A DNA stretch of 64,000 bases. It comes from a virus. The notes beneath the pieces are model-generated. The model did not search any database. It was not told where the DNA came from and was given only the letters and a program-made list of their open reading frames with translations. Positions 6,479 through 19,424 of this stretch are shown here, in pieces. Location of the stretch: the IMG/VR virus record IMGVR_UViG_3300047160_005727, positions 1 through 64,000 of that record; one strand, given 5' to 3'. The stretch's first letter is position 1. Every line of letters begins with the position of its first letter. A program made the position numbers and the translations under genes.

Positions 6479-6820
6479 ATGCTCAGCCTGGAAGTGAAGT
6501 TACAGCAAAAGTTGGACGAAGCTAACAAGGAGATCGTTCGGCTCAAGGCACTGGTTACTGACCTCCAGCACGAACTGGTCAACATCGAGAAAGATCGGGC
6601 TCGCGATATCGCGGCGTGGTATCGGTCTTACGTATTCGCGGATCGCCAGGCGCGCCTGGAACCGCTCACCGAGTTCAGCAAGGCTGACCTGCAAGGTGTC
6701 AGTGTCAGGCGGGCCACGGGGATCATTTTGGCAAATGATGACCCACGGCACATCCGCGCGCAAATTCTGGGACGGGGTAAATGGCGGATCAATGGCCGAC
6801 CTAGACACATCAACAGTTAG
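6479..6820 (+). CDS. Hypothetical coiled-coil protein
   Basis: 113-aa ORF with a heptad-like N-terminus (LQQKLDEANKEIVRLKALVTDLQHEL). Confidence 0.6.
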   Translation: MLSLEVKLQQKLDEANKEIVRLKALVTDLQHELVNIEKDRARDIAAWYRSYVFADRQARLEPLTEFSKADLQGVSVRRATGIILANDDPRHIRAQILGRGKWRINGRPRHINS

Positions 6821-7594: not shown

Positions 7595-10500
7595 ATGTCT
7601 CTTACACTCAACCCGGCGAACCTGGCCCGGCGCGAAGCGGCCGAGGCCGGTGACTACTATCAGGTAGGCCAGGCATACGGCTTCCTGGTCAAGTCGGCTG
7701 CCAGACCGGTTGCAGCGCCGGTGTTGCACGGAAGACTGATCGTGACCCCACACAAGTGGGGCATGATCCTGGTGCCGAACTCCTTGATACGCGGCGTATT
7801 CGATGCCATCGACGAGCCCGGCGTCGAGCTACCGCTGCGCGACGGTGTCCTGAAGGGGCACATCTCCGTCTTCAGGCCCGAAGAGATCGACAAGATCGGC
7901 GGCGAGAACAAGATCAGTGAGCGAGGCCATCCGTTCTCGTACCAGCTTGGCCCCTTGATGGAAGTCGATCCCAAGGGCTGGGAGGAGATGTCCAAAGCCT
8001 GGTTCATCAAGGTCATGTCCCCTGAGCTGAAGGCGCTGCGCAGGAGCTACGGCCTCTCCCCGCTCCCTAACAACGATCACGAGTTTCACATTACGGTGGC
8101 TGTCAGGCGCAAGAACGTGCTGGGGGCCGGGGCGACCTCGAAGGCAGCGGCAGCCGACGAAGATGACGATGAAGATGTACATAGTGGCCTTAGCGACGAT
8201 GTACATCAAAGCGAGGAAGAAGAGGACAGCGGCGCGGACAATGACGACGGTAAAGTCAGGGTCAAGATCCCCCTGTCGATCCAGCGCATCTGCATAACCC
8301 GCATCTCTTTAGCGAAGCCAAACGGAAAGGAAAAAGGAGAGGACAGCGCGGACAGCGGACTTGACGACTTCATGGACATGCTCAGGAGCAAGTCCGGCTC
8401 CGTGAAGGAGGCCGCCGGCCTGGCTGATGCTTTTAAGGGAATGGGCAAAGGACTGGGTCAGGCAGTGCTCGGTGCCGGGCGAAGCGCCTTGCAGCGAGTC
8501 GGCTCGTCGCCGGTGGCGGGTAGCCTGGCATCGCTGGGCAAGCAGTTCGCAGCCGCCCCAGCAGCAATGACAAGACAGGCTCTCGGCAATACGGCCCGGT
8601 TCGTGGCCAGCGTACCTGCGGGTCAGAACTTCACCGGGCAGGCCGGCGCCGGGGCGCTCTCCCGTGCCGGTACCACACTCAAGAACCTGGGCCGGATCGC
8701 CGTCGCGCCCCGTTATCCCGGACTTGACCGGCCCGTCGGCGTGACTTCGATGAACCGGCCGTTTGATGCCACTCGGGCCATGCTCGGCAATATTGGCCGC
8801 AAGGGAAGCATCGGTGCCATGGGGCTCTCTGGCGTGGCGATCGGCAACGCCGCTCTCAGGACTTATCCGAACTGGGTCGGCCAGCATATTGCCGACGCAA
8901 CCGGCCAGGGTGAGAACGCCGAGAACATCAAGGCAACGATGCGATCAGAAGCTCCTGGGTTCTACGGCCACATGATCAAGGACACCTTGACCAACTCCCA
9001 GGAGCCTGCCTCGAAGTTCGTGCGCGGGGTCATCGGCGACATCGCTGTGCCGACCATTCGCAACGACATCTATAACGCCCGCCAGACCAAGCCTTGGCTG
9101 ATGGGCGCGATCGATACGCTGCGATCGACAACTCCTGCCGGCTGGCTGGCAACCCAGGGGCTCAAGGCGTTCGGCTCCGAGACGCCGCCGGATATCGCCG
9201 GCGCAGTCCAGCAACATGCTCCCGGACTGCTCGCAGGGACAGCTGAGAACCCTGAAGCGGTGGCGGCCAGCCCGTATGCGGGCCTGATCAAGAGCATGAC
9301 TCCGGCTGTGGCCCCGCAGACGGCCGGACAACCTTCGGCTGCTGAAGGGGTAGCTCACTACATCCGGACGACGAACCCGGAGAACGCGCGCGAGCGCTAC
9401 AACCAGATGCGGCGGCTGCTGCCACAGATGCCGCTGGCCTCGATCGCAGGGAACATCAAGGCCGGATCTGCCCTCGAAGGGCTCACGCCGGTCTTGGCGG
9501 GCGCTGGCCTTGGCGGCCTGGCCGGAAACCTGTATGGCCGGTTCCGCGGATCGGAAGACCTGTGGAGCGACACGCTGGGTGGAGCTGCCGTCGGCGGGGC
9601 CGGTGGTGCCGCCTACAGTCTCGTCAACAAGGCACAAGGCGCACCGACGATACCGAAGCCGGTACCAAGACCTTACACGCCACCACCGGGATCGCAGCCC
9701 AAGAACCTGGTCGAGGCCGTCAAGCCCTATTACGCGAATGTTCCGGGCGGTGTCGAAGGAGCGATCGCGCGAGCGCAGGCGAACCAGGCGCCGGTCGAAA
9801 AGTCGCTGGCCATGGCTCCCTGGAAGGCCGAGGATATCCGGGCCAACATCCCGGTCTCGGAGATCACCAAGGATCAGGCTGCGGTCGATCCCCGTAGGCC
9901 ACCCGAGACCAGCGGTGCCACGCTCAAGGGTTGGTCCGAGTCCAACTTCGATGAGGCCGTGAGAAACCCCAACGCTCCCACGGCCAAGATCAAGATGATC
10001 ACGCCGCCCGACAGCCCCGAGGACAGCAGGCAGCTTCTGGAGCACGAGCTGACCCATGCGGGGATCCAGCTCACGCCGATGGCCCGGACGATACGTGAGA
10101 CAGGCAGGGCGCCCGAGGTCGATGAAAAGGCTCAGCACTCAGGCGCCGAGCTGGTACGACGGCTCGGTGGAACACCCAGCAGCAAAATGCTTGATCCGAA
10201 GTCGTTCGAGAACTACGCGACCTCGGCCCGCGAGCTTGATCCCCGGCTGGCTCAGATCAAGCGGTTCTACGCTGAGCACAGCGGCCAGGATGTGACGACG
10301 CCCGAAGAAGCCAAGAACGCCATGAACTGGTTCCGCGCCTGGATCAAGTCCCCGGAAGGTCAAGCCAGGGCCGGTGCGACAGGCCGGGACTGGGAGTCGC
10401 TCTTCCAGCTGCCCGAATGGCAACAGACTCTCGAGGGTGCGGCAGCCCGGCGCATGCCAGGACTGGTCGACATCAGCCGGCTCGATCCCAACCTGAAGGC

Positions 10501-12325
10501 GGCGGCCGATGCTGGTGTCCAGGATCTCCTCAAGGACTGGAAGCCTCCCGAGAAGAACCCGTTCGCCGGCTTTGAAGGCTTCGCCCAGACCTTCCACGCC
10601 AAGACCCCGCGGGAGCAGGCGATCGAGTCGCTGGGGCGGATCGCCTTGATGGCAGCGCCGCCCCTGGCGATGGCAGGCGGGCTAGCTCTGTGGCGCCCCT
10701 GGGAGCAGTCAGCACCTCCCAAGCCGGTGCGGCGCAGAATGCCGGTCGAGATGGCGAAGGTCGCAGGCGCGGCTGAAGAACACGGCATCGAGTTCGAGGG
10801 GAAGTATCCGTGGTCCTCGCCGGGAAAGCTGCATCGATGGTCGGTCGAACATCAGCTTTTCAACCAGGCATACGATCGGCACCATCAAGGCGGCAAAGTA
10901 CCCAAAAAGGAAGCGCTACGCCGCGCGGTGGAAGAGTACGACCAGACCGCAGACAAGATCAATGCGATAGGGCTGGGCGCATTCACTGGTGGCCTGGGTG
11001 GCTGGGGGCTGAACCGCGCGCTGGGCGGAGAGCACAACCTCGCTGCCCAGCTTGGTGGCGCTGCCCTGGGTGGCCTGGGTGGCTGGGGGCTGCACCACCT
11101 GGCGACGAAGTACGGCGAGACCAAGACCGCCGCCGTCTCGGACGTGATGAACTCGATCTACGCGCAGCTACCCCGGATCAGAGTGCCCGATACGGCCGTT
11201 GGAGCTGGTGTGGGAGCCCTCGGCGGCCTGGGGTACGACCTGATCCGGGGTGGAGATCCCAAGGCTCGCTGGCGGCAGCGCATCGGCCGGATCTTGACCG
11301 GGGCCGGTGCCGGCGCGCTGGCAGGCAATGTGATCGGCGATCGAACCCGCCGCTACATCTCGAACAGCTTCGTGCCCTTCAGCTATGAGAACAACCCGGC
11401 CCAGGCCCTCAAGCCGCGCAGCCTGTCGCACATCTGGAACGCGGCGATCCTGGACAAGCCGCAGTACCAGCAGGCCAACGAAGAAGGACTGAAGCGGCTC
11501 CAGGCGCAGGGCAAGCCGGTGGTTTCCGCCCTGACGAGCAAGGACTATGACTATCGCAAGGACACGCTGGAGAACTACATGCTGCCGGCACGGCGGGAGA
11601 TCTTCCGCCGCCAGCTGGGCGTACACACCGAGAACCCGCTCACCGACATCTGGAAGGAAGGCCCGAACGATCAGCTCTTCTTGAACCCCAAGAACCCCAA
11701 GTCGCTGGCCACGGCCCAGCGGTTCATGGGCTCGATGGCCGGCGGCATTCCCAAGGACATCTTCAGCGACGTGGGCGACGCGCGCCGTTACCTAAACGCC
11801 ATGAGCAGCGATAACGAAGATGCTGCCCTGTTCTCGTCGGCCGTGACCGGCGGGCAGCAGGTGCCGTTCAAGATGCTGCCGGGCGGCAAGGGCATCGAAG
11901 GCTCGGTCCTCGATCGCTGGGACTATACCCTCGATCCCAAGGAGCAAGCGTTCTTCAAAGACAATATCAAGAACATGCTCACGAACCCGAAATGGCGTCA
12001 GGCGAAATTCGCTCCCAAGGAGCCGCTCTCCGGTTACATGGACCCCGCCAAGATCAACGGTCCCAACTCGGATGCGTGGAAGGCGCTGGCCGCGCGCTGG
12101 GGCCTGGACAACCTGGTGTCGTACAAGCATCCCTGGATCACCCAGCGGTTTCGCATCGAGCCCAACCCTGAGCCGGTAAAGCGAAACGCGCAGGGCTTTA
12201 TGCCGTTTGGAACACCGCAACAGATCCAGCTGTTGTCGCCGACCGGCGAGAACTGGGGTGATCCGATCACTCAAGCGGGGCATGCCGAGTTCAAGAAGCA
12301 CCCGTCGGTGATACCAGCACTATGA
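7595..12325 (+). CDS. Polyvalent polyprotein: 2H phosphoesterase, acidic tract, glycine-zipper modules and zincin metallopeptidase
   Basis: Two HxS/T motifs (GHISV at 7859, FHITV at 8087). HExxH (EHELTHAG, ~10040) with a downstream Glu (SARELDPR). GGLGGWGL glycine zippers. Modules are separated by K-x-A motifs. Confidence 0.8.
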   Translation: MSLTLNPANLARREAAEAGDYYQVGQAYGFLVKSAARPVAAPVLHGRLIVTPHKWGMILVPNSLIRGVFDAIDEPGVELPLRDGVLKGHISVFRPEEIDKIGGENKISERGHPFSYQLGPLMEVDPKGWEEMSKAWFIKVMSPELKALRRSYGLSPLPNNDHEFHITVAVRRKNVLGAGATSKAAAADEDDDEDVHSGLSDDVHQSEEEEDSGADNDDGKVRVKIPLSIQRICITRISLAKPNGKEKGEDSADSGLDDFMDMLRSKSGSVKEAAGLADAFKGMGKGLGQAVLGAGRSALQRVGSSPVAGSLASLGKQFAAAPAAMTRQALGNTARFVASVPAGQNFTGQAGAGALSRAGTTLKNLGRIAVAPRYPGLDRPVGVTSMNRPFDATRAMLGNIGRKGSIGAMGLSGVAIGNAALRTYPNWVGQHIADATGQGENAENIKATMRSEAPGFYGHMIKDTLTNSQEPASKFVRGVIGDIAVPTIRNDIYNARQTKPWLMGAIDTLRSTTPAGWLATQGLKAFGSETPPDIAGAVQQHAPGLLAGTAENPEAVAASPYAGLIKSMTPAVAPQTAGQPSAAEGVAHYIRTTNPENARERYNQMRRLLPQMPLASIAGNIKAGSALEGLTPVLAGAGLGGLAGNLYGRFRGSEDLWSDTLGGAAVGGAGGAAYSLVNKAQGAPTIPKPVPRPYTPPPGSQPKNLVEAVKPYYANVPGGVEGAIARAQANQAPVEKSLAMAPWKAEDIRANIPVSEITKDQAAVDPRRPPETSGATLKGWSESNFDEAVRNPNAPTAKIKMITPPDSPEDSRQLLEHELTHAGIQLTPMARTIRETGRAPEVDEKAQHSGAELVRRLGGTPSSKMLDPKSFENYATSARELDPRLAQIKRFYAEHSGQDVTTPEEAKNAMNWFRAWIKSPEGQARAGATGRDWESLFQLPEWQQTLEGAAARRMPGLVDISRLDPNLKAAADAGVQDLLKDWKPPEKNPFAGFEGFAQTFHAKTPREQAIESLGRIALMAAPPLAMAGGLALWRPWEQSAPPKPVRRRMPVEMAKVAGAAEEHGIEFEGKYPWSSPGKLHRWSVEHQLFNQAYDRHHQGGKVPKKEALRRAVEEYDQTADKINAIGLGAFTGGLGGWGLNRALGGEHNLAAQLGGAALGGLGGWGLHHLATKYGETKTAAVSDVMNSIYAQLPRIRVPDTAVGAGVGALGGLGYDLIRGGDPKARWRQRIGRILTGAGAGALAGNVIGDRTRRYISNSFVPFSYENNPAQALKPRSLSHIWNAAILDKPQYQQANEEGLKRLQAQGKPVVSALTSKDYDYRKDTLENYMLPARREIFRRQLGVHTENPLTDIWKEGPNDQLFLNPKNPKSLATAQRFMGSMAGGIPKDIFSDVGDARRYLNAMSSDNEDAALFSSAVTGGQQVPFKMLPGGKGIEGSVLDRWDYTLDPKEQAFFKDNIKNMLTNPKWRQAKFAPKEPLSGYMDPAKINGPNSDAWKALAARWGLDNLVSYKHPWITQRFRIEPNPEPVKRNAQGFMPFGTPQQIQLLSPTGENWGDPITQAGHAEFKKHPSVIPAL

Positions 12326-15300
12326 GCGACCCGTTCAGCCTACCGACCTGGCAGGAGATATTTCAGGAAGCAGCCATCGAGCTGATGCCTGAGCTGGTCA
12401 AGACCGCCAAGAAGAAAAAGAAGCCAAAGCCGCCAGCCCTGCTTGCCGAAGACGAGAAGATCCGGGCCAACAAGAAGAAGCCCGAGAACCAACAGCCGCA
12501 CAAGTTCGAGGCTGCCGAGTGGACCCACGGTAATGGCCATCCCCGCTGTATCCGCTGTGGGGGTGAAGAGCCGGCGGGCGGCATGTGTGGTGACGGCCGG
12601 CCGATCCCGGAGGTCTTGAAGGTCGCAGCCGACTATGCGCCCGGGCTGCCCTCGAAGTCCGATATGGGTCACGCCAATAAGCTCCGCGTCGGCCAGATGC
12701 TCGACTACATAGTCCAGCAGCATGATGCCGAGCGCGCAGGCCGGCACTTCGATGTCCGGTTCGGTAACCCCGAGATGGGCTTGCTCTCCTGGGCCGCGCG
12801 CAAGGGGCTGCCCGAGCCCGGAGCCAAGCACCTTGCAGTCCAGCAACCCGTGCACAGACACGGCTACAAGGACTTCGAGGGTACGATCCCCGAGGGCTAT
12901 GGCGCCGGGACGGTCAAGAAGCACGACGAAGGTCAGGTGCTGATAACCAAGGTAACGCCCGAGTCTATTCACTTCACGACGGCTCACCCGAGGCACCCCG
13001 AGCGGTTCGTGCTGGCGAGGCCCAAGGGCTGGGGCAACAAGAACTGGCTGATGATGAACACGACCCCCAGAGACGAAGTCCCTTACGAGAAGATCCGCTA
13101 CAAGAAGATCGCCCCCGAAGACGTCGAACCTCATCTCCAGAAGATGCAGGCCGGTGATACCGCCGAGGCCAAAGTCGATGGCGCCAGCCAGCTCGTGCAG
13201 CTGGCCAAGAACCACGCCGAGATGTTGAGCTTCCGGACCTCGAAGACCACGGGCCGGCCGATCTTCCACACCGAGCGCTTCTTCGGCGGCAGGCCCGAGA
13301 TCCCGGTGCCCAAGCACCTGGAGGGGTCGATCCTGAAAGGGGAGATGTACGCCGCCAAGGACAAGGGTGTTGGTACGCCCCAGGATGTTGGTATGTTACT
13401 GAACTCAGGCATCGCCCGGAGCCTTCAGCTCCAGAAGGAGAAGGGACTTGCCTTACGCAACATGCTCTATGATGTTCAACAATACGGTAAGAGGCCGATC
13501 GATCCGACCGTTACGCCGCGTATTGAACGGCGCAAGATGCTTGAGGAGATCGCCGGTCATCTGCCAAAGGACAAGTTTCATGTCTCAGAAGAAGCCCACG
13601 GCCCCGAAGAAGCAACCAAGCTCTGGAACAAGATCAGGTCGGGTAAACATCCCCTTACACAAGAGGGCGCTGTCCTCCACCCAGCAGTTGGTATCCCAAG
13701 CAAAGCAAAGTTGGTCGAGGACTATGACGTTCATTTGCGGGGTACTTTCCCGGGTGAAGGCAAGCGTCAGCAAACTGTGGGCGGGTTTGTGTACTCGCAC
13801 AAGCCGACTGGGCCGATCGCTGGCAAGGTCGGTACGGGCTTTAGCGATGAGTTCTTGAAGGACGTAGCCGGGGATCCAGAGGCTTACATTGGCCGTGTGG
13901 CACGGTTACGATCGCAACAGAAGTTACCGTCAGGTGCGCTTCGAGCCCCTAGCTTTATAGCTTTACATGAAGACTACCCAGATAAGCCCAGGGGATCATT
14001 TCGGAAGACTGGAAGTTCTAGCGCGCGCACCGGACAGGGAAGGGAACCGAAACAGTTGGTGGACTTGCCGCTGTGCCTGCGGAACGGTGAAGGACATCAG
14101 AAGCTGTCGACTGACCGGCGGGCACCCAACGCGCTCATGTGGTTGCTTGAAAAGCGAGCAGAAGCGAGCACAGCTCCAGACCCACGGCATGTCCGACACA
14201 CCGGTATACGCGGTCTGGCGCAACATGATCCAGCGATGTACCGACAAGGGGAGCAAGGACTATCCCCGATGGGGAGGCCGGGGCATAACGGTATGTCCCC
14301 AGTGGCGGGACTTCACAGTCTTCTTCAGGGACATGGGGCTGCCGCCGCCGGGCATGACCATCGAACGGAAAGAGAACAATGGCCCCTACTCCCCGGAGAA
14401 TTGCCACTGGGCAACCAAGTCGGCGCAGGCACGGAACAGGCGGAACAACCGGCGCCTGACCGTGAACGGTCTGACGCTGCCAGTGTCAGCGTGGGCAGAA
14501 CGGAACGGCGTACCCTTCCGCACGATCCTGAAAAGGCTGTTTCGGGGATATTCGGACTCGGAGGCGGTGGCAACGAAGTCGTTCAGGGGACGCAACGGGG
14601 CGTCTCCACCAAGGTTGGTGCAGCCAAACTAGCCAGCTTCTTCGGCTATGGTCAGCCGGCTCCGGGCGGTGCCTTGACCGTGCCGGACTACGAGCTTCCC
14701 GGCGAGCGTATCAAGCGAAAGCGGCCGGCGGCTGTGATAGCTGCCCCGCCGCCGACGTGGATGGAGACGCTACGCAACTCGCTCTGGGGCAACCCCAACG
14801 CCCTGGTGCCCGACGTCATCAAGCAGATCGAAGAGGAGGAAGAGGGCGGGGGCATGATCCCCAAGGTCGGTGCGGCCAAGTGTCCGCCCGGCGAATGCTG
14901 CCCGAAGTGCGGAGCCCGGCTTGAATGCGATCCTGACAGCGGCAAGTGCAACCGGTGTGGCCATCTCTGGGGCGAGAAAGCCGCTGCCTACACGACGGAG
15001 AACACGAGTACCCTCCCCGATGGCCGCACACTCAATATCGACGCGCTGAATGACCGGGCCAAGAACCGGTCTGTCGAACGGATCCCCCTGGCCGATCTGG
15101 CGAAGCCCAACCGTTCTTCCAGTACCGGCTTCTCGAAGAAGCGATATGCCAAGCTCGATATGAACAAGCCAATTCTCGTCGGCACCGACGGTACGCTCTA
15201 TGACGGCCGCCACCGGCTAGCCCGGCATCTCGATGAAAGCAAGTCGCATATCCGTGCGCGCCGTGTCACCGACAAGGATATCGATGCCGTGACGGTAACT

Positions 15301-17946
15301 CATGCGCCGAAAGGTGACCGGATCGATGAAAGCCGGATCGAGATGCTCCCGGAGAAAGCTGCTGCGATCATTGATGACCTCAAACGAGCCAAGGCCCAAA
15401 GCGATCGAGGCAATTATTCCGAGAAGCATCGTATCCTCGCGAAGCTGCTCAGCGAACGCCCTAATGAGTTCATCCAGGACTCATCCGGGCGGGGCATGAT
15501 CGGGCTGACACACACAACAGGCTTCCGTTTACATGCACCAGCTACGCTGGTGCGCAGTAAGCTCATCAAGGCGGCCGACTTGCTCCCGTGGGTAAACCTC
15601 CAGGAACAGCAGAAGCGGGTCGCTAAGCGTGTAGGCGAAGGTCAGAATTTGTTGGTCTATCACGGGCTCGGAAGCGGTAAGAGCCTCGCGAGCCTGGCGG
15701 CTGCTGAAGGTGTCGGCGGACCATATACCGCGATCGTTCCAGCATCGCTCAAACCAAACTACCTTAAAGAAATACATAAATTTACTACTGAGACATCACC
15801 ATCAGAAGTAATGTCTTATACTGGGGTTGGGTTAGGCAAACAGCCCAAGATCACGCCCAATACGATCATCATGGACGAATGCCTTCCTACTGGGACACCG
15901 GTTGATGGAAGACCGATCGAAACCTACGGTATCGGCGATCTTGTCTGGAGCATCGATCATGTGACGAGTCGGATCGAACGGCGATCAGTGATACGCACAG
16001 CAGTACGGTATACCGATGAGATCGCAGTTATTGAATTCGCAAGCGGACGTCAGCTGGTTTGTACACCCAACCATTCGATCTACACGCAGCGAGGCTACAT
16101 AGCCACCGAAGACTTGATCGAAGGTGATAACGGTTATACACTCTACGGAAACGCTGTCCCCTTCGATCAAGGAGAAGACGATGCCGCAGTGGATCGAGGC
16201 CGTATGCGGGATGTGCGGAAAGACATTCTTGGCATTCAAGTCGCCGTCCAAGATGGTGAAGCATTGCTCCAAAACATGCCGGGAAAAAGTTCGAGTTATC
16301 GCCATGAAGGCCATGAGCGACGCGACCCGCGATCAGCGTATACAGCGAATGACCAGCAACAACCCCATGGCGGATGCGGCGTGTCGTCAGCGTGTATCGA
16401 CGACAATGCGAGAGCGGGGATACAAGCCTCGCGTGCGTGGCGGCAATGGCGCCGGACCAACGGAGCAGGAAGTGGCCGTGGCCACGGCACTCAGCTGGCC
16501 GACGAATGTCGTGGTCGTAACTGGGCTGAGTTATCGTCCTTGGCATTACAAGGTCGATGTCGGGAACCCGGATCTGAAGATAGCCATCGAGATCGATGGT
16601 CGGTGCCACAATTCGTCAAAGCGGCGAGAGGCAGACAGAAGGAAGGATACCTTCTTGCGATCGATCGGGTGGTCAGTGTTGCGGTTTACAAACAAGGATG
16701 TGGACCAGAATTTGACTGGCTGTGTCCAGATGGTCTTGTCCACGATCTCACTGTCGACGGCAACCACAATTTCTTCGCCGATGGCTACCTAGTTCATAAC
16801 TCCCAGCGCATCCGTAACCCGGGCTCGGCCGGCACGCGCGCGGCGATGGATCTGGCCATGAAGGCCAAGCACCGGATCTTGCTCTCGGGTACGCCGATCG
16901 TGAACCAGCCCAGCGACCTGGCCGTGCCGCTGTCGATCCTGACCGGCAACGAGATGAGCCCGGCTGCCTTCAACCAGAAGTTCGTCGGCAGCAAGACGGT
17001 CAGTCCCGGCTGGATGGGATGGTTCCAGGGCGTCAAGCCGGTCAAGACCCCGACACTCCAGAACGAAGACGATCTCGAGCGACTGCTCGAAGGGCATGTC
17101 GACTACCAGGCGTCGCGTGCGCCTGAAGGTGTCAAAACTAAAGACGAACGAGTCGAGGTGGATCTTAGTCCCGAACAGCAGAATTTCTACAAACTCATGT
17201 GGGGTAAGCTACCGTGGATGCTTCGCTGGAAGCTGTCCAATGACTATCCACTGGACAAGAATGAGCTGGCTCACCTGTCAGCGTTCATGACCGGTCCGCG
17301 GCAGGCTGCCCTGTCGCTGTATCCCTATCACTCGTCCAAAGATCCGATGCATGCGTTTGGCACGTCGTCCAAGCTCCAAGCGGCCATGGGCAGTCTGAAG
17401 GAGACCCTGGCGAAAGATCCGCGAGCCAAGGCCATCGTCTACTCGAACTTCATCGATGCCGGCCTGACGCCCTACGCTGCCGCCCTCGAACATGAAGGCA
17501 TCCCGTATGGGCAGTTCCACGGTCAGATGAACGACGAAGACCGCAAGCGAACCCTGGACGAATATAACGCCGGTAAGCGTCGCGTGCTCCTGATCGGTCC
17601 CGCTGGCGCCGAGGGGATCTCGGCCAAGGGTACACAGCTCATTCAGCTTCTTGATCCGCACTGGAACGAAGCCCGACTGGGTCAAGCGCGCGGCCGCGGG
17701 CTGCGGTTCGATAGTCATGAGGGTTTGCCCGAAGAGCTACGCGATGTGAGAATACAGCGGTTCGTGGCCAAGATGCCGCCGCCCGGCTGGCTGGGCAGCA
17801 TGTTCGGCCAGAAGCCCCGGCCATCGGCGGATGAGGTGCTCGAACGGCAGTCGCAGCGCAAGGAAGAACTCAACGAGCAGTTCCGGGATGTCCTGCGCCG
17901 GGTGGGCTCGCCTGACTACCGCCGGCCGTGGCATCTCTTCGGCTGA
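12322..17946 (+). CDS. Polyvalent polyprotein: LigD-type 3'-phosphoesterase, ATP-dependent DNA ligase, Zn ribbon, ParB-like domain and intein-containing SF2 (SNF2/D6-D11-like) helicase
   Basis: PE domain: QQHDAERAGRHFDVRF...LLSWA.RKG...HLAVQ...H.Y.DFEGTIPEGYGAGTV. Ligase motifs: AKVDG, KGEMY, LYDV, QEGAV, KAK, GKVGTGFSD, LRAPSF. ParB-like: PILV...LYDGRHR. Helicase: YHGLGSGKS, IVPASL, DE|SQ, LSGTP, HWN..R.GQARGRGLR.DSH. Confidence 0.9.
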   Translation: MSDPFSLPTWQEIFQEAAIELMPELVKTAKKKKKPKPPALLAEDEKIRANKKKPENQQPHKFEAAEWTHGNGHPRCIRCGGEEPAGGMCGDGRPIPEVLKVAADYAPGLPSKSDMGHANKLRVGQMLDYIVQQHDAERAGRHFDVRFGNPEMGLLSWAARKGLPEPGAKHLAVQQPVHRHGYKDFEGTIPEGYGAGTVKKHDEGQVLITKVTPESIHFTTAHPRHPERFVLARPKGWGNKNWLMMNTTPRDEVPYEKIRYKKIAPEDVEPHLQKMQAGDTAEAKVDGASQLVQLAKNHAEMLSFRTSKTTGRPIFHTERFFGGRPEIPVPKHLEGSILKGEMYAAKDKGVGTPQDVGMLLNSGIARSLQLQKEKGLALRNMLYDVQQYGKRPIDPTVTPRIERRKMLEEIAGHLPKDKFHVSEEAHGPEEATKLWNKIRSGKHPLTQEGAVLHPAVGIPSKAKLVEDYDVHLRGTFPGEGKRQQTVGGFVYSHKPTGPIAGKVGTGFSDEFLKDVAGDPEAYIGRVARLRSQQKLPSGALRAPSFIALHEDYPDKPRGSFRKTGSSSARTGQGREPKQLVDLPLCLRNGEGHQKLSTDRRAPNALMWLLEKRAEASTAPDPRHVRHTGIRGLAQHDPAMYRQGEQGLSPMGRPGHNGMSPVAGLHSLLQGHGAAAAGHDHRTEREQWPLLPGELPLGNQVGAGTEQAEQPAPDRERSDAASVSVGRTERRTLPHDPEKAVSGIFGLGGGGNEVVQGTQRGVSTKVGAAKLASFFGYGQPAPGGALTVPDYELPGERIKRKRPAAVIAAPPPTWMETLRNSLWGNPNALVPDVIKQIEEEEEGGGMIPKVGAAKCPPGECCPKCGARLECDPDSGKCNRCGHLWGEKAAAYTTENTSTLPDGRTLNIDALNDRAKNRSVERIPLADLAKPNRSSSTGFSKKRYAKLDMNKPILVGTDGTLYDGRHRLARHLDESKSHIRARRVTDKDIDAVTVTHAPKGDRIDESRIEMLPEKAAAIIDDLKRAKAQSDRGNYSEKHRILAKLLSERPNEFIQDSSGRGMIGLTHTTGFRLHAPATLVRSKLIKAADLLPWVNLQEQQKRVAKRVGEGQNLLVYHGLGSGKSLASLAAAEGVGGPYTAIVPASLKPNYLKEIHKFTTETSPSEVMSYTGVGLGKQPKITPNTIIMDECLPTGTPVDGRPIETYGIGDLVWSIDHVTSRIERRSVIRTAVRYTDEIAVIEFASGRQLVCTPNHSIYTQRGYIATEDLIEGDNGYTLYGNAVPFDQGEDDAAVDRGRMRDVRKDILGIQVAVQDGEALLQNMPGKSSSYRHEGHERRDPRSAYTANDQQQPHGGCGVSSACIDDNARAGIQASRAWRQWRRTNGAGSGRGHGTQLADECRGRNWAELSSLALQGRCREPGSEDSHRDRWSVPQFVKAARGRQKEGYLLAIDRVVSVAVYKQGCGPEFDWLCPDGLVHDLTVDGNHNFFADGYLVHNSQRIRNPGSAGTRAAMDLAMKAKHRILLSGTPIVNQPSDLAVPLSILTGNEMSPAAFNQKFVGSKTVSPGWMGWFQGVKPVKTPTLQNEDDLERLLEGHVDYQASRAPEGVKTKDERVEVDLSPEQQNFYKLMWGKLPWMLRWKLSNDYPLDKNELAHLSAFMTGPRQAALSLYPYHSSKDPMHAFGTSSKLQAAMGSLKETLAKDPRAKAIVYSNFIDAGLTPYAAALEHEGIPYGQFHGQMNDEDRKRTLDEYNAGKRRVLLIGPAGAEGISAKGTQLIQLLDPHWNEARLGQARGRGLRFDSHEGLPEELRDVRIQRFVAKMPPPGWLGSMFGQKPRPSADEVLERQSQRKEELNEQFRDVLRRVGSPDYRRPWHLFG
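13967..14632 (+). CDS. HNH homing endonuclease overprinted in the +1 frame inside the 12322-17946 ORF
   Basis: FGRLEV...W.CRCACG...RSCGC...W.NM.QRC...YPRWGGRGITVC..W..F..F..DMG......TIER..NNG.YSPENC.WAT...Q.RN, a typical phage HNH family pattern. Confidence 0.88.
   Translation: MKTTQISPGDHFGRLEVLARAPDREGNRNSWWTCRCACGTVKDIRSCRLTGGHPTRSCGCLKSEQKRAQLQTHGMSDTPVYAVWRNMIQRCTDKGSKDYPRWGGRGITVCPQWRDFTVFFRDMGLPPPGMTIERKENNGPYSPENCHWATKSAQARNRRNNRRLTVNGLTLPVSAWAERNGVPFRTILKRLFRGYSDSEAVATKSFRGRNGASPPRLVQPN
15880..16800 (+). mobile_element. Intein (307 aa) inserted in the Walker B motif of the helicase
   Basis: IMDE|CLPTGTPV start, block B CTPNHSIYT, block F/G VHDLTVDGNHNFFADGYLVHN|SQ with a +1 Ser. 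Confidence 0.93.
16181..16792 (+). CDS. DUF559/Vsr-like endonuclease with an N-terminal Zn finger, nested in the +1 frame inside the intein
   Basis: AAGGAG RBS at 16169-16174 and ATG at 16181. CGMCGK...HCSKTC; PTEQE; YKVDVG...KIAIEIDGRCH...DRRKDTFLRSIGWSVLRF. Confidence 0.88.
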   Translation: MPQWIEAVCGMCGKTFLAFKSPSKMVKHCSKTCREKVRVIAMKAMSDATRDQRIQRMTSNNPMADAACRQRVSTTMRERGYKPRVRGGNGAGPTEQEVAVATALSWPTNVVVVTGLSYRPWHYKVDVGNPDLKIAIEIDGRCHNSSKRREADRRKDTFLRSIGWSVLRFTNKDVDQNLTGCVQMVLSTISLSTATTISSPMAT

Positions 17947-17957
17947 TCGGAGGACAC

Positions 17958-19424
17958 ATGGATCCGCTGTTCACACCTGTCACCAACAAGCCGTTCACGA
18001 GCGTGCTGGCCGAGGACGTGACCTACGATCCCAACCAGAGCGCGCTCATGAACGTGGGGCACAACCTGGCGCGGGCCGGTGACAAGGTCATCATGCGCAA
18101 CCGCTGGCAGGATCGTGCCATCCAGATGGAACAGGCGATGGAGAAGCTCCGCCAGGAGCAGGCGATCGCCCGGCGGCGCGCAGCCATGCTGAAGATCGGC
18201 CGGCTCCAGGAGCAGCTGGGTGCGATCGTCGACGAGCATGACTACGATGCCTGGCGGAAGGTGCCGGAGATGGTCGTTGCCCTCTTCAAGAAGGCAGCCC
18301 CGATCGCGTGCCGGCTGGCTGCCTGGGCCGACCGGGCGGCAGGCCCGGAAGATCGGCTGTGGTGGCACGGTGACTCCAACACAGCCTGGGCCGAGATCGC
18401 CGACACGGAGAAGCGGGCTGACTGGGAGGCCCTGCCTGATGTTCCCGGTGTTCCTGGTCTGGCTCTGTTCATCGAGCCCTTCCCTCCACCACCAGTCGAA
18501 GGCTGGCTCATGGTCAAGGCTGCCGACGGCTACCTCGAACCACTCGCCAAACCGCACCATCAGATCCAGCAGATGATGGCGGCTCCGTTCGGCGCCAAGC
18601 CAAACGGCCTGACCTCGGCGATCCTCAACGGCGTGCTCGGCGGCGGCCTGGGTTACGGTGCCGGTTGGCTGGCCGACCAGTTCTTGCCGGAAGAGCACTT
18701 CCAGAAAGGCCGGCTGGCCAAGACCCTGGGGCTCGCCGGTGCCGGTCTAGGTGCCATTCCGGGCCTGTGGCGCTACTCGGCCGAGGTTCGAGGCCAGAAC
18801 TACCCGCCTTACAACGGCGGGCCTGGCCCGCTGCCGAGGATACCCCACAAAGACATCCCCAACCCGTGGGGTTATCCGGGTTCGCTGCACCCGGATACCG
18901 ATCTCAGCCCGCAGCTGCCGCCTCCGCCGCCCAAGAACCCGCTCCAGCCGTTCGGGACGACCTCGCCGTTCGATGCCAACGGAACCAAGCTGGCCTCGGT
19001 GCACCCGTGGCTCCACAAGGCGGCTGAAGACTACGGCACGGGCGCCATGTTCCTCCAGACCATCCCGGTGGATGCATTCAACCAGGCTATCTGGAACGAC
19101 GTGGAACACCCGCCCAACCGGTTTGGCACCAAGAGCCCCTGGGGCAACAACGAGCAGCCCATGGGTACGCCGCCTTACGCGGCAGCAGCCATCTCGGGCT
19201 TGCTGGCGGGCACGGCGCAAGCGGTCGGCTCAGGAGCCGTCAGTCCGCTTCAGGTCGCAGCAGCGGCGGCTATGGGGGCTGGAAAGGGCTGGGTTACCGG
19301 CATGGCAGCCGGTAAGATCCTGGGTGCTATGGCCGGGTTGAAACCCGAGTCGCAGCAGAAGCTCCAGAGCCTGGGGCTCTGGGGCGGGCTGATCACCGGC
19401 GTGGCCAACTCGCTCTATCGCTGA
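17958..19424 (+). CDS. Virion-associated protein with glycine-zipper membrane segments
   Basis: GGAGGA RBS; GVLGGGLGYGAGW and GLWGGLITG segments; several K-x-A motifs. Confidence 0.75.
   Translation: MDPLFTPVTNKPFTSVLAEDVTYDPNQSALMNVGHNLARAGDKVIMRNRWQDRAIQMEQAMEKLRQEQAIARRRAAMLKIGRLQEQLGAIVDEHDYDAWRKVPEMVVALFKKAAPIACRLAAWADRAAGPEDRLWWHGDSNTAWAEIADTEKRADWEALPDVPGVPGLALFIEPFPPPPVEGWLMVKAADGYLEPLAKPHHQIQQMMAAPFGAKPNGLTSAILNGVLGGGLGYGAGWLADQFLPEEHFQKGRLAKTLGLAGAGLGAIPGLWRYSAEVRGQNYPPYNGGPGPLPRIPHKDIPNPWGYPGSLHPDTDLSPQLPPPPPKNPLQPFGTTSPFDANGTKLASVHPWLHKAAEDYGTGAMFLQTIPVDAFNQAIWNDVEHPPNRFGTKSPWGNNEQPMGTPPYAAAAISGLLAGTAQAVGSGAVSPLQVAAAAAMGAGKGWVTGMAAGKILGAMAGLKPESQQKLQSLGLWGGLITGVANSLYR

Follow-up and report, generated by a model that had tools for sequence, protein, structure and literature searches.

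The systems closest to the locus described here are homing endonuclease genes hidden in a second reading frame of another phage gene. The "ShiLan domain" of mycobacteriophage methylases is an insert without a host-frame stop and without intron or intein features, and gp60 of phage Pacc40 is a second hidden-HNH case, whose hidden open reading frame (ORF) is similar to a gene that stands alone in phage Tiff81; how the hidden HNH is translated was left open in the published cases (Arsenault, Gosselin & Gogarten, Genes 2025, PMC11855218). Free-standing homing endonucleases also give rise to fractured or split genes (Dassa et al. 2009, PMC2677866), with Aeh1 nrdA/mobE and T4 gene 39/60 cited there and in PMC5009743. 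Non-canonical inteins with an out-of-frame or antisense endonuclease have been reported (Gosselin, Arsenault & Gogarten, bioRxiv 10.1101/2025.01.02.630785), and autoprocessing has been proposed for the polyvalent proteins of phages and conjugative elements (Iyer et al. 2017, PMC5512222). Here we describe a nested HNH-family gene in IMG/VR record IMGVR_UViG_3300047160_005727, a 141-kb viral contig of soil origin that is present in many soil metagenome runs but in no listed RNA run, and of which the first 64 kb (positions 1 to 64,000; from this point on, the window) were analysed. We consider it likely that this gene is an out-of-frame, or hidden, PHROG 374 homing-endonuclease cassette, which resides in the post-ligase linker of a polyvalent polyprotein gene and is tolerated by read-through.

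In the proposed arrangement, the insert is a whole number of codons without a host-frame stop, so ribosomes would read through it, yielding about 215 unconstrained and probably disordered filler residues, from the LHEDY that closes the ligase up to the following K-[LV]-A motif. Neither RNA nor protein splicing would be needed. Translation of the nuclease would be a separate event, initiated at the +1-frame ATG of the nested gene, while selection has two targets: the protein sequence of the HNH frame and, for the host frame, simply that it contain no stop. Related phages would exchange the cassette or pass it on, different linker sites would do so as well, and its nuclease would presumably cleave the empty allele.

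The nested gene and its insertion site

Features of the locus, at positions in the window:
12322-17946, + strand: host ORF of 1874 codons, a polyvalent polyprotein whose relatives retain the same continuous frame
12322-13977, + strand: phosphoesterase and ligase module (Pfam LigD_N), with KVDG at 13171-13188 and the LHEDY end at 13963-13977
13967-14632, + strand: HNH-family homing-endonuclease-like gene (PHROG 374) of 221 codons, starting at an ATG of its own and lying +1 relative to the host frame
13978-14610, + strand: host-frame filler of about 211 codons, absent from HNH-less alleles and without a Pfam domain
14611-14634, + strand: linker motif K-V-G-A-A-K-L-A, with the HNH TAG (14630-14632) written within its K-L-A codons
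14863-14880, + strand: second KVGAAK, at the next module boundary, just 5' of the Zn ribbon CPPGECCPKCG

The HNH ATG falls inside the host codons TTA-CAT-GAA, which encode L-H-E of LHEDY, and the TAG falls inside the host codons AAA-CTA-GCC. The host gene runs uninterrupted across the insert and is not fractured into two ORFs; a Pfam scan found no domain at host residues 549-771, and the filler is rich in G, A, R, L and P. The sequence-only reading of this DNA, made without database searches, had described a complete 221-residue gene beginning within the last ligase codons and stopping within K-L-A, a stop-free and unrecognisable host frame, a further LEKRAE in that frame, and a duplicated KVGAAK. 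All of its coordinates were confirmed, with LLEKRAE at 14143-14163 and both copies of KVGAAK (14611-14628 and 14863-14880) in the host frame.

Among 56 ligase-bearing polyproteins recovered by protein search, the ligase mostly ends as ...LHEDYPxxK[AVT][AGS], and several proteins terminate right at LHEDY. Because the ligase module finishes at LHEDY, where some proteins stop altogether, the insertion site lies beyond its functional end. A search of IMG/VR with the ligase returned two close relatives, contigs L002 and L003, to which the DNA of L100-L103 was added, the protein search having turned up the same filler in four more proteins. L002 carries an empty allele, ...PSFLGLHED-IN-KVASHADTAATLKLAG..., in which the ligase is joined directly to a K-V-A linker (LHED-IN-KVASHAD), just as the sequence-only reading had anticipated for a relative lacking the HNH. 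L003 is occupied by a +1 ORF at the same position, 79% identical to that of the window and with the host frame likewise open. In total, the site is occupied in the window, L003, L100, L101, L102 and L103, and empty in L002, L105, L106 and the polyproteins P0009 and P0010; the empty allele is continuous in L002, L105 and L106. DNA alignment places the start and stop of the nested gene in codons that differ between the two states: CAT-GAA holds the ATG in occupied alleles, as opposed to CAC-GAA in the empty L002, and AAG-GTA-GCC holds the TAG in the occupied L003, as opposed to AAG-GTG-GCC in L002.

The 3' junction of the insert is bridged at 100% identity by contigs from four independent soil runs. 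At the 5' junction, among these contigs, all of low depth, no piece from the window's own strain spans the join by at least 31 nucleotides (nt), and one piece joins an L003-type upstream flank to the HNH start. Since the same layout recurs in five other independently assembled contigs and the 3' junction is bridged by the four runs, an assembly artefact is excluded.

The nested protein matches PHROG 374, a family annotated as HNH endonuclease, with an E-value of 8e-65. Four further PHROG families, annotated as HNH or restriction endonuclease, also match, and the strong HNH-annotated matches are 374, 3377, 2081 and 953. By tblastn, relatives occur in 1168 isolated-phage records, with query coverage of at least 80% in 241 of these. 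Within the family core, R134, Y141, N145 and W148 are invariant, and Q154 and N157 nearly so. An AlphaFold (AF2) model built from a 39-sequence alignment, with a mean predicted local distance difference test score (pLDDT) of 91.6, consists of an N-terminal small barrel with four conserved cysteines, a strand-strand-helix core (strands 131-134 and 146-149, helix 151-156) and a helical C-terminal part. The best structural match to the core (residues 70-162) is the HNH restriction enzyme PacI, 3m7k, with a Z-score of 6.0 and a root-mean-square deviation of 2.7 over 79 residues, values below the level that would exclude chance. A Foldseek search of the model against the PDB gave no match at E <= 0.001, and a family-profile sequence search of the PDB returned nothing meaningful. 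The annotation, together with weak evidence from the modelled fold, is suggestive of an HNH-family protein, and we regard its nuclease chemistry as putative.

Constraint on the two frames and spread of the cassette

To estimate the probability that a host frame would be open by chance, the codons within each nested gene were shuffled synonymously and host-frame stops were counted. Such shuffles produce an expected 2-7.5 host-frame stops per nested gene, and the resulting probability of an open frame is 0.023 for the copy in the window, from 0.0006 to below 5e-5 for four other copies, and from 0.07 to below 2e-4 over 13 nested genes. The third frame of these genes contains 5-13 stops, as expected, with 9-13 in the window copy and those four others. 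As a control, 80 free-standing homologues were taken from IMG/VR; the equivalent frame is open in none of them, nor in any of the 18 with a G+C (GC) content of 0.55 or more, which have 1-14 stops (median 8). An estimate of this kind had been proposed in the sequence-only reading, and its outcome is far beyond chance.

The host frame is open in all five full-length orthologues at the site, despite a synonymous divergence of 1.1-2.2 per site in the HNH frame. Among these orthologues, the ratio of nonsynonymous to synonymous substitution (dN/dS) is 0.12-0.32 in the HNH frame versus 0.9-1.5 in the host frame, and amino-acid identity is 54-79% versus 32-55%. An AF2 model of the filler, from a shallow 5-sequence alignment, has a mean pLDDT of 43.6 and no secondary structure. 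By these sequence measures, the +1 product behaves as a constrained protein and the host frame as one constrained solely to be stop-free. That openness is itself under selection, and not a product of chance, is strongly supported by the shuffles and the comparison of homologues. The codon geometry is simple. The host frame begins at the third codon position of the HNH frame, where GC is 0.63-0.83 and T about 0.1, and a host-frame stop requires a T-ending HNH codon before a codon starting with AA, AG or GA. Openness is cheap because the host frame starts at this GC-rich, T-poor position, so that few synonymous choices need to be fixed.

The cassette is patchily distributed. Occupancy of the site requires at least four changes on a ligase tree of 28 polyproteins, of which at least two are forced by well-supported branches, and the nearest relatives of the window, at 84% identity, are empty at the site. 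Between L100 and L101, both flanks are 97-100% identical, identity drops to roughly 55-60% from 51 nt past the ATG to the TAG, and it returns to at least 90% at AAGCTGGC, which encodes K-L-A; one insert is 132 nt (exactly 44 codons) longer than the other. The resident HNH allele has thus been exchanged for a different one, with the host frame open in both.

Ten contigs were screened on both strands for alternate-frame ORFs of at least 90 codons inside large ORFs. The screen recovered 12 HNH-family genes and one DUF559/Vsr-like gene, in nine of the ten contigs and all in the +1 frame; no nested nuclease gene was found in the +2 frame or antisense. Beyond the copy in the window, then, eleven further +1-nested HNH-family genes lie in polyprotein ORFs of related phages, and one polyprotein gene of L100 has three of them:
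L003, 3224-4045: nested HNH gene, +1 frame
L002, 1598-2344: nested HNH gene, +1 frame
L101, 3465-4100: nested HNH gene, +1 frame
L102, 5892-6641: nested HNH gene, +1 frame
L105, 471-1130: nested HNH gene, +1 frame
L100, 2436-3203, 3981-4670 and 4977-5723: three nested HNH genes in one gene, +1 frame
L103, 1969-2457: truncated or degenerate nested HNH copy, +1 frame
L104, 6726-7178: truncated or degenerate nested HNH copy, +1 frame

The gene callers of the source databases list the host ORF alone, with the exception of L105, for which a separate overlapping gene of 212 residues is given. Farther afield, residues 186-310 of P0042, a distant ligase polyprotein from a Logan contig, match a profile of the host-frame filler with an E-value of 1e-13, and this match suggests another nested HNH outside the close clade.

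Polyprotein context, linker motif and rival explanations

The host ORF encodes, in order, a LigD-type 3'-phosphoesterase with an ATP-dependent ligase, the filler, a Zn ribbon, a ParB-like module carrying DGRHR, a small module, and a SNF2 helicase split by an intein. A search with the whole polyprotein (tblastn) against isolated phages returned distant helicase and intein pieces only, with no cultured relative, and a metagenome scan with the ligase C-terminus gave 105 pattern matches, none of which was confirmed. Module order differs between close relatives with respect to the Zn ribbon, the ParB-like module, a DLKRAKA-SD module and SNF2 (12322-17946 in the window, 5740-10011 in L002, 1-5433 in L003). 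Additional modules include Nudix in L003 and GNAT, lysozyme/LysM or C39 peptidase in other relatives, and every shuffled module has K-x-A motifs at its borders. In L002, two polyprotein ORFs are merged into one of 2977 codons. Immediately upstream in the window lies an ORF of 1576 codons (7595-12325), its stop codon overlapping the ligase start in the sequence ATGA (12322-12325). The product of this upstream ORF has a 2H-SAK phosphoesterase at its N-terminus, contains HExxH as LLEHELTHAG, and includes numerous hydrophobic, Gly-rich stretches. A response regulator is encoded directly 5' of the polyprotein gene in L102 (1-987) and L104 (1-984), and L102 also has a PAS/HisKA/HATPase histidine kinase, possibly making up a phage-borne two-component system. 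The L102 polyprotein closes with KLAELHEDKDVVS and a stop codon (6641-6685), repeating the ligase-end LHED beyond the insert, which may be a recombination footprint; its helicase is a separate gene.

The SNF2 module of the window contains a nested nuclease of its own:
15880-16800, + strand: Hint-type intein in the SNF2 helicase (CLPTG...LVHN; Pfam PT-HINT and Intein_splicing)
16181-16792, + strand: DUF559/Vsr-like nuclease gene in the intein, +1 frame (Pfam DUF559, 44 bits versus a cut-off of 20.6)

This intein has no in-frame endonuclease. The DUF559 gene is preceded by an AAGGAG Shine-Dalgarno sequence, and the probability of its host frame being open in synonymous shuffles is 1e-4.

Several observations weigh against a hidden homing endonuclease that is tolerated by read-through. 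The nested protein has no HNH match in Pfam or NCBIfam, and the core of its family contains an invariant Arg (ER/DR) and lacks a conserved His in the beta-beta-alpha core. No Shine-Dalgarno sequence precedes the HNH start, unlike the ordinary genes of this genome, which use GGAGG-type sites; HNH starts are preceded by AT-rich leaders only. Since it has no such sequence, the nuclease is probably weakly translated. The copies in L103 and L104 are truncated or degenerate, and the host frame is still open there, a state that would be expected late in a homing-element cycle that takes place inside an ORF. The host frame is open in L102 too, where just 13 codons of polyprotein follow the insert; from this case, openness may be inherited with the cassette and not be required locally. 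As for translation, a +1 programmed frameshift fusing the ligase to the HNH was considered and rejected: a TAG stands two codons upstream of the HNH ATG, in the HNH frame, in the window, L003 and L102, and there is no slippery site in common.

The stop codons of the nested genes are tied to a recurring linker motif. In 10 of the 12 nested HNH genes, no more than five codons separate the stop from a host K-[LVI]-A motif, whose background density is 0.0017 per residue (binomial P about 3e-16). The TAG is often written inside AAR-STA-GCC, and this placement by itself would fix the +1 relation. K-x-A may be a protease site, and one alternative is that the insert sits between two such sites, so that the filler is released and discarded during polyprotein processing, at head maturation in the version of the sequence-only reading; proteolysis would then do what splicing does for introns and inteins. 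The clustering of HNH stops at the motif would fit this, as would the K-x-A borders of the shuffled modules, the several proteins that end near the motif, and the fillers of L002_C, L003_B and L100_3, which are flanked by K-x-A on both sides. The upstream polyprotein contains HExxH, and polyvalent proteins are thought to be autoprocessed (PMC5512222). Nevertheless, Pfam and PHROG revealed no protease in the window, the PHROG scan of 20 neighbouring genes giving almost no matches, and K-x-A cleavage would itself have to be assumed; packaging of the polyprotein into virions would be a further assumption. The sequence-only reading had put the filler between protease sites, and at this insertion site the window has the motif on the downstream side only. 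K-x-A is present after the filler (KVGAAKLA), whereas the upstream side reads LHEDYPDK-PRG, without a canonical motif, and only a fortuitous KTG and KRA occur inside the filler. Were K-x-A cleaved, the window filler would thus remain as a ligase tail of about 215 residues. We regard excision by proteolysis as possible though doubtful. A broader idea, which we put forward only tentatively, is that of an HNH lineage specialised in polyprotein genes, which homes to K-[LV]-A DNA, writes its TAG inside the motif, carries a heritable stop-free -1 frame and relies on K-x-A proteolysis to trim or release the filler. If this were true, proteolysis would be a third route, beside introns and inteins, to a harmless homing endonuclease, and the repeated motif would let one element colonise several sites per gene.

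The remaining alternatives bear on the insert or on the purpose of the nuclease. Phage HNH genes often reside in group I introns, very divergent introns may be invisible to Rfam, and the region just 5' of the ATG is AT-rich, so one could imagine removal at the RNA level, whether by a degenerate group I or II intron or by translational bypassing as in T4 gene 60, with the open frame being irrelevant. A cmscan of 12000-18500 against Rfam at a permissive threshold, however, found no intron family at E <= 1, returning only a chance small-RNA match (E 0.89), and there is no room for a ribozyme core because the ORF fills the whole insert. No insert-skipping form was seen among contigs from DNA runs. 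Every insert is a multiple of three and stop-free under selection, which would be pointless if the insert were spliced or bypassed, and we judge removal from the mRNA to be very improbable. Hint blocks and intein termini were not found in the filler, whose borders (...LHED-YPDKP and ...STKVGAAKLA-S) are not of the intein type, even though Pfam does detect the genuine intein 1.2 kb downstream (residues 1187-1493). The earlier proposal of an HNH gene without intron or intein, harmless without splicing, is strongly supported by these negatives together with the stop-free insert, the empty and occupied alleles and the selected openness. It could also be that the nuclease is domesticated, kept by the phage for degrading host or competitor DNA or for aiding packaging, with nesting giving compact or timed expression. 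HNH proteins assist terminases in some phages (PMC11855218), up to three copies occur per gene (L100), and purifying selection has persisted over a long divergence; but presence is patchy among close relatives, alleles are swapped, copies in L103 and L104 are degenerate, and the family is scattered over more than 1000 unrelated phages, often in multiple copies, as is typical of homing elements. Domestication therefore seems unlikely to us. That the open frame is luck in a GC-rich genome, that ligase and downstream modules are separate genes, or that the region is misassembled is scarcely credible. Window GC is 63%, long spurious ORFs are frequent there, and some distant relatives have a ligase ending at LHEDY and a separate helicase gene; these points are outweighed by the shuffle probabilities, the 0 of 80 free-standing homologues, the continuous empty alleles, and the agreement of six independent assemblies and four independent runs, which rule out the GC-chance and artefact alternative that the sequence-only reading had itself raised.

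Comparison with described systems

If the K-[LV]-A link reflects both target choice and proteolytic trimming, the biology of a selfish element would be tied to polyprotein processing, and the linkers would be marked as permissive insertion sites for phage engineering. For annotation, nested nuclease genes are missed by gene callers, and stretches of about 200 residues in a "polyprotein" amount to meaningless filler, which matters for annotating and modelling the polyvalent proteins of jumbo phages.

The principle of an out-of-frame hidden HNH is already published (PMC11855218), and the window offers a well-controlled, multi-copy example of a mode of residence described only in 2025. As in ShiLan and Pacc40, there is no host-frame stop, an HNH ORF in another frame fills the insert, and its stop lies in the last bases of the insert; also shared are a disjunct distribution, a host-frame product that either is disordered or cannot be assigned, and the absence both of a ribosome-binding site and of intron or intein signatures. 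The nuclease family of the window element is probably also that of the Pacc40 case, because protein P0002 is 42% identical (E 4e-39) to gene 70 of Tiff81, the phage whose gene PMC11855218 relates to the Pacc40 ORF. Pacc40 was not among the top matches listed in a search with Tiff81 gene 70. The host differs, being a giant polyvalent polyprotein of uncultured soil jumbo-type phages and not a methylase, as do the frame and start: +1 and ATG here, the "third" frame and GTG in ShiLan. Unlike the published cases, the window lineage has up to three inserts per gene, placed in inter-module linkers and stopping on a recurring K-[LV]-A. Beyond those cases, the selection on openness, the dN/dS of each frame and the cassette swap are quantified here.

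Common to fractured genes and this locus is the invasion of a phage coding sequence by an endonuclease gene (HNH, GIY-YIG or Vsr-like) that is free-standing and brings no intron with it, and the junctions show short coding overlaps. In fractured genes, however, a stop and a new start give two ORFs, rejoined by split inteins or subunit assembly, whereas the ORF in the window is in one piece. Non-canonical inteins likewise have a nuclease ORF overprinted on a stop-free host segment, and the SNF2 intein with its DUF559 gene is of the same kind; the HNH at 13967, in contrast, has no flanking Hint domain, and its filler is therefore not removable by protein splicing. Like the polyvalent proteins, the host gene is very large and multi-enzyme (2H-SAK phosphoesterase, ligase, ParB-like, SNF2, Zn ribbon), with a variable module order; the paper describing them (PMC5512222) makes no mention of homing endonucleases, inteins or nested frames. 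Relative to the described systems, the present case contributes another host gene in another lineage of phages, nesting in the +1 frame, more than one copy per gene, and an association with a linker motif that recurs. It also contributes quantified selection on openness, which is, as far as we have found in the literature, the first quantitative evidence of its kind and comes with a simple codon-position reason why openness is cheap in GC-rich genomes.

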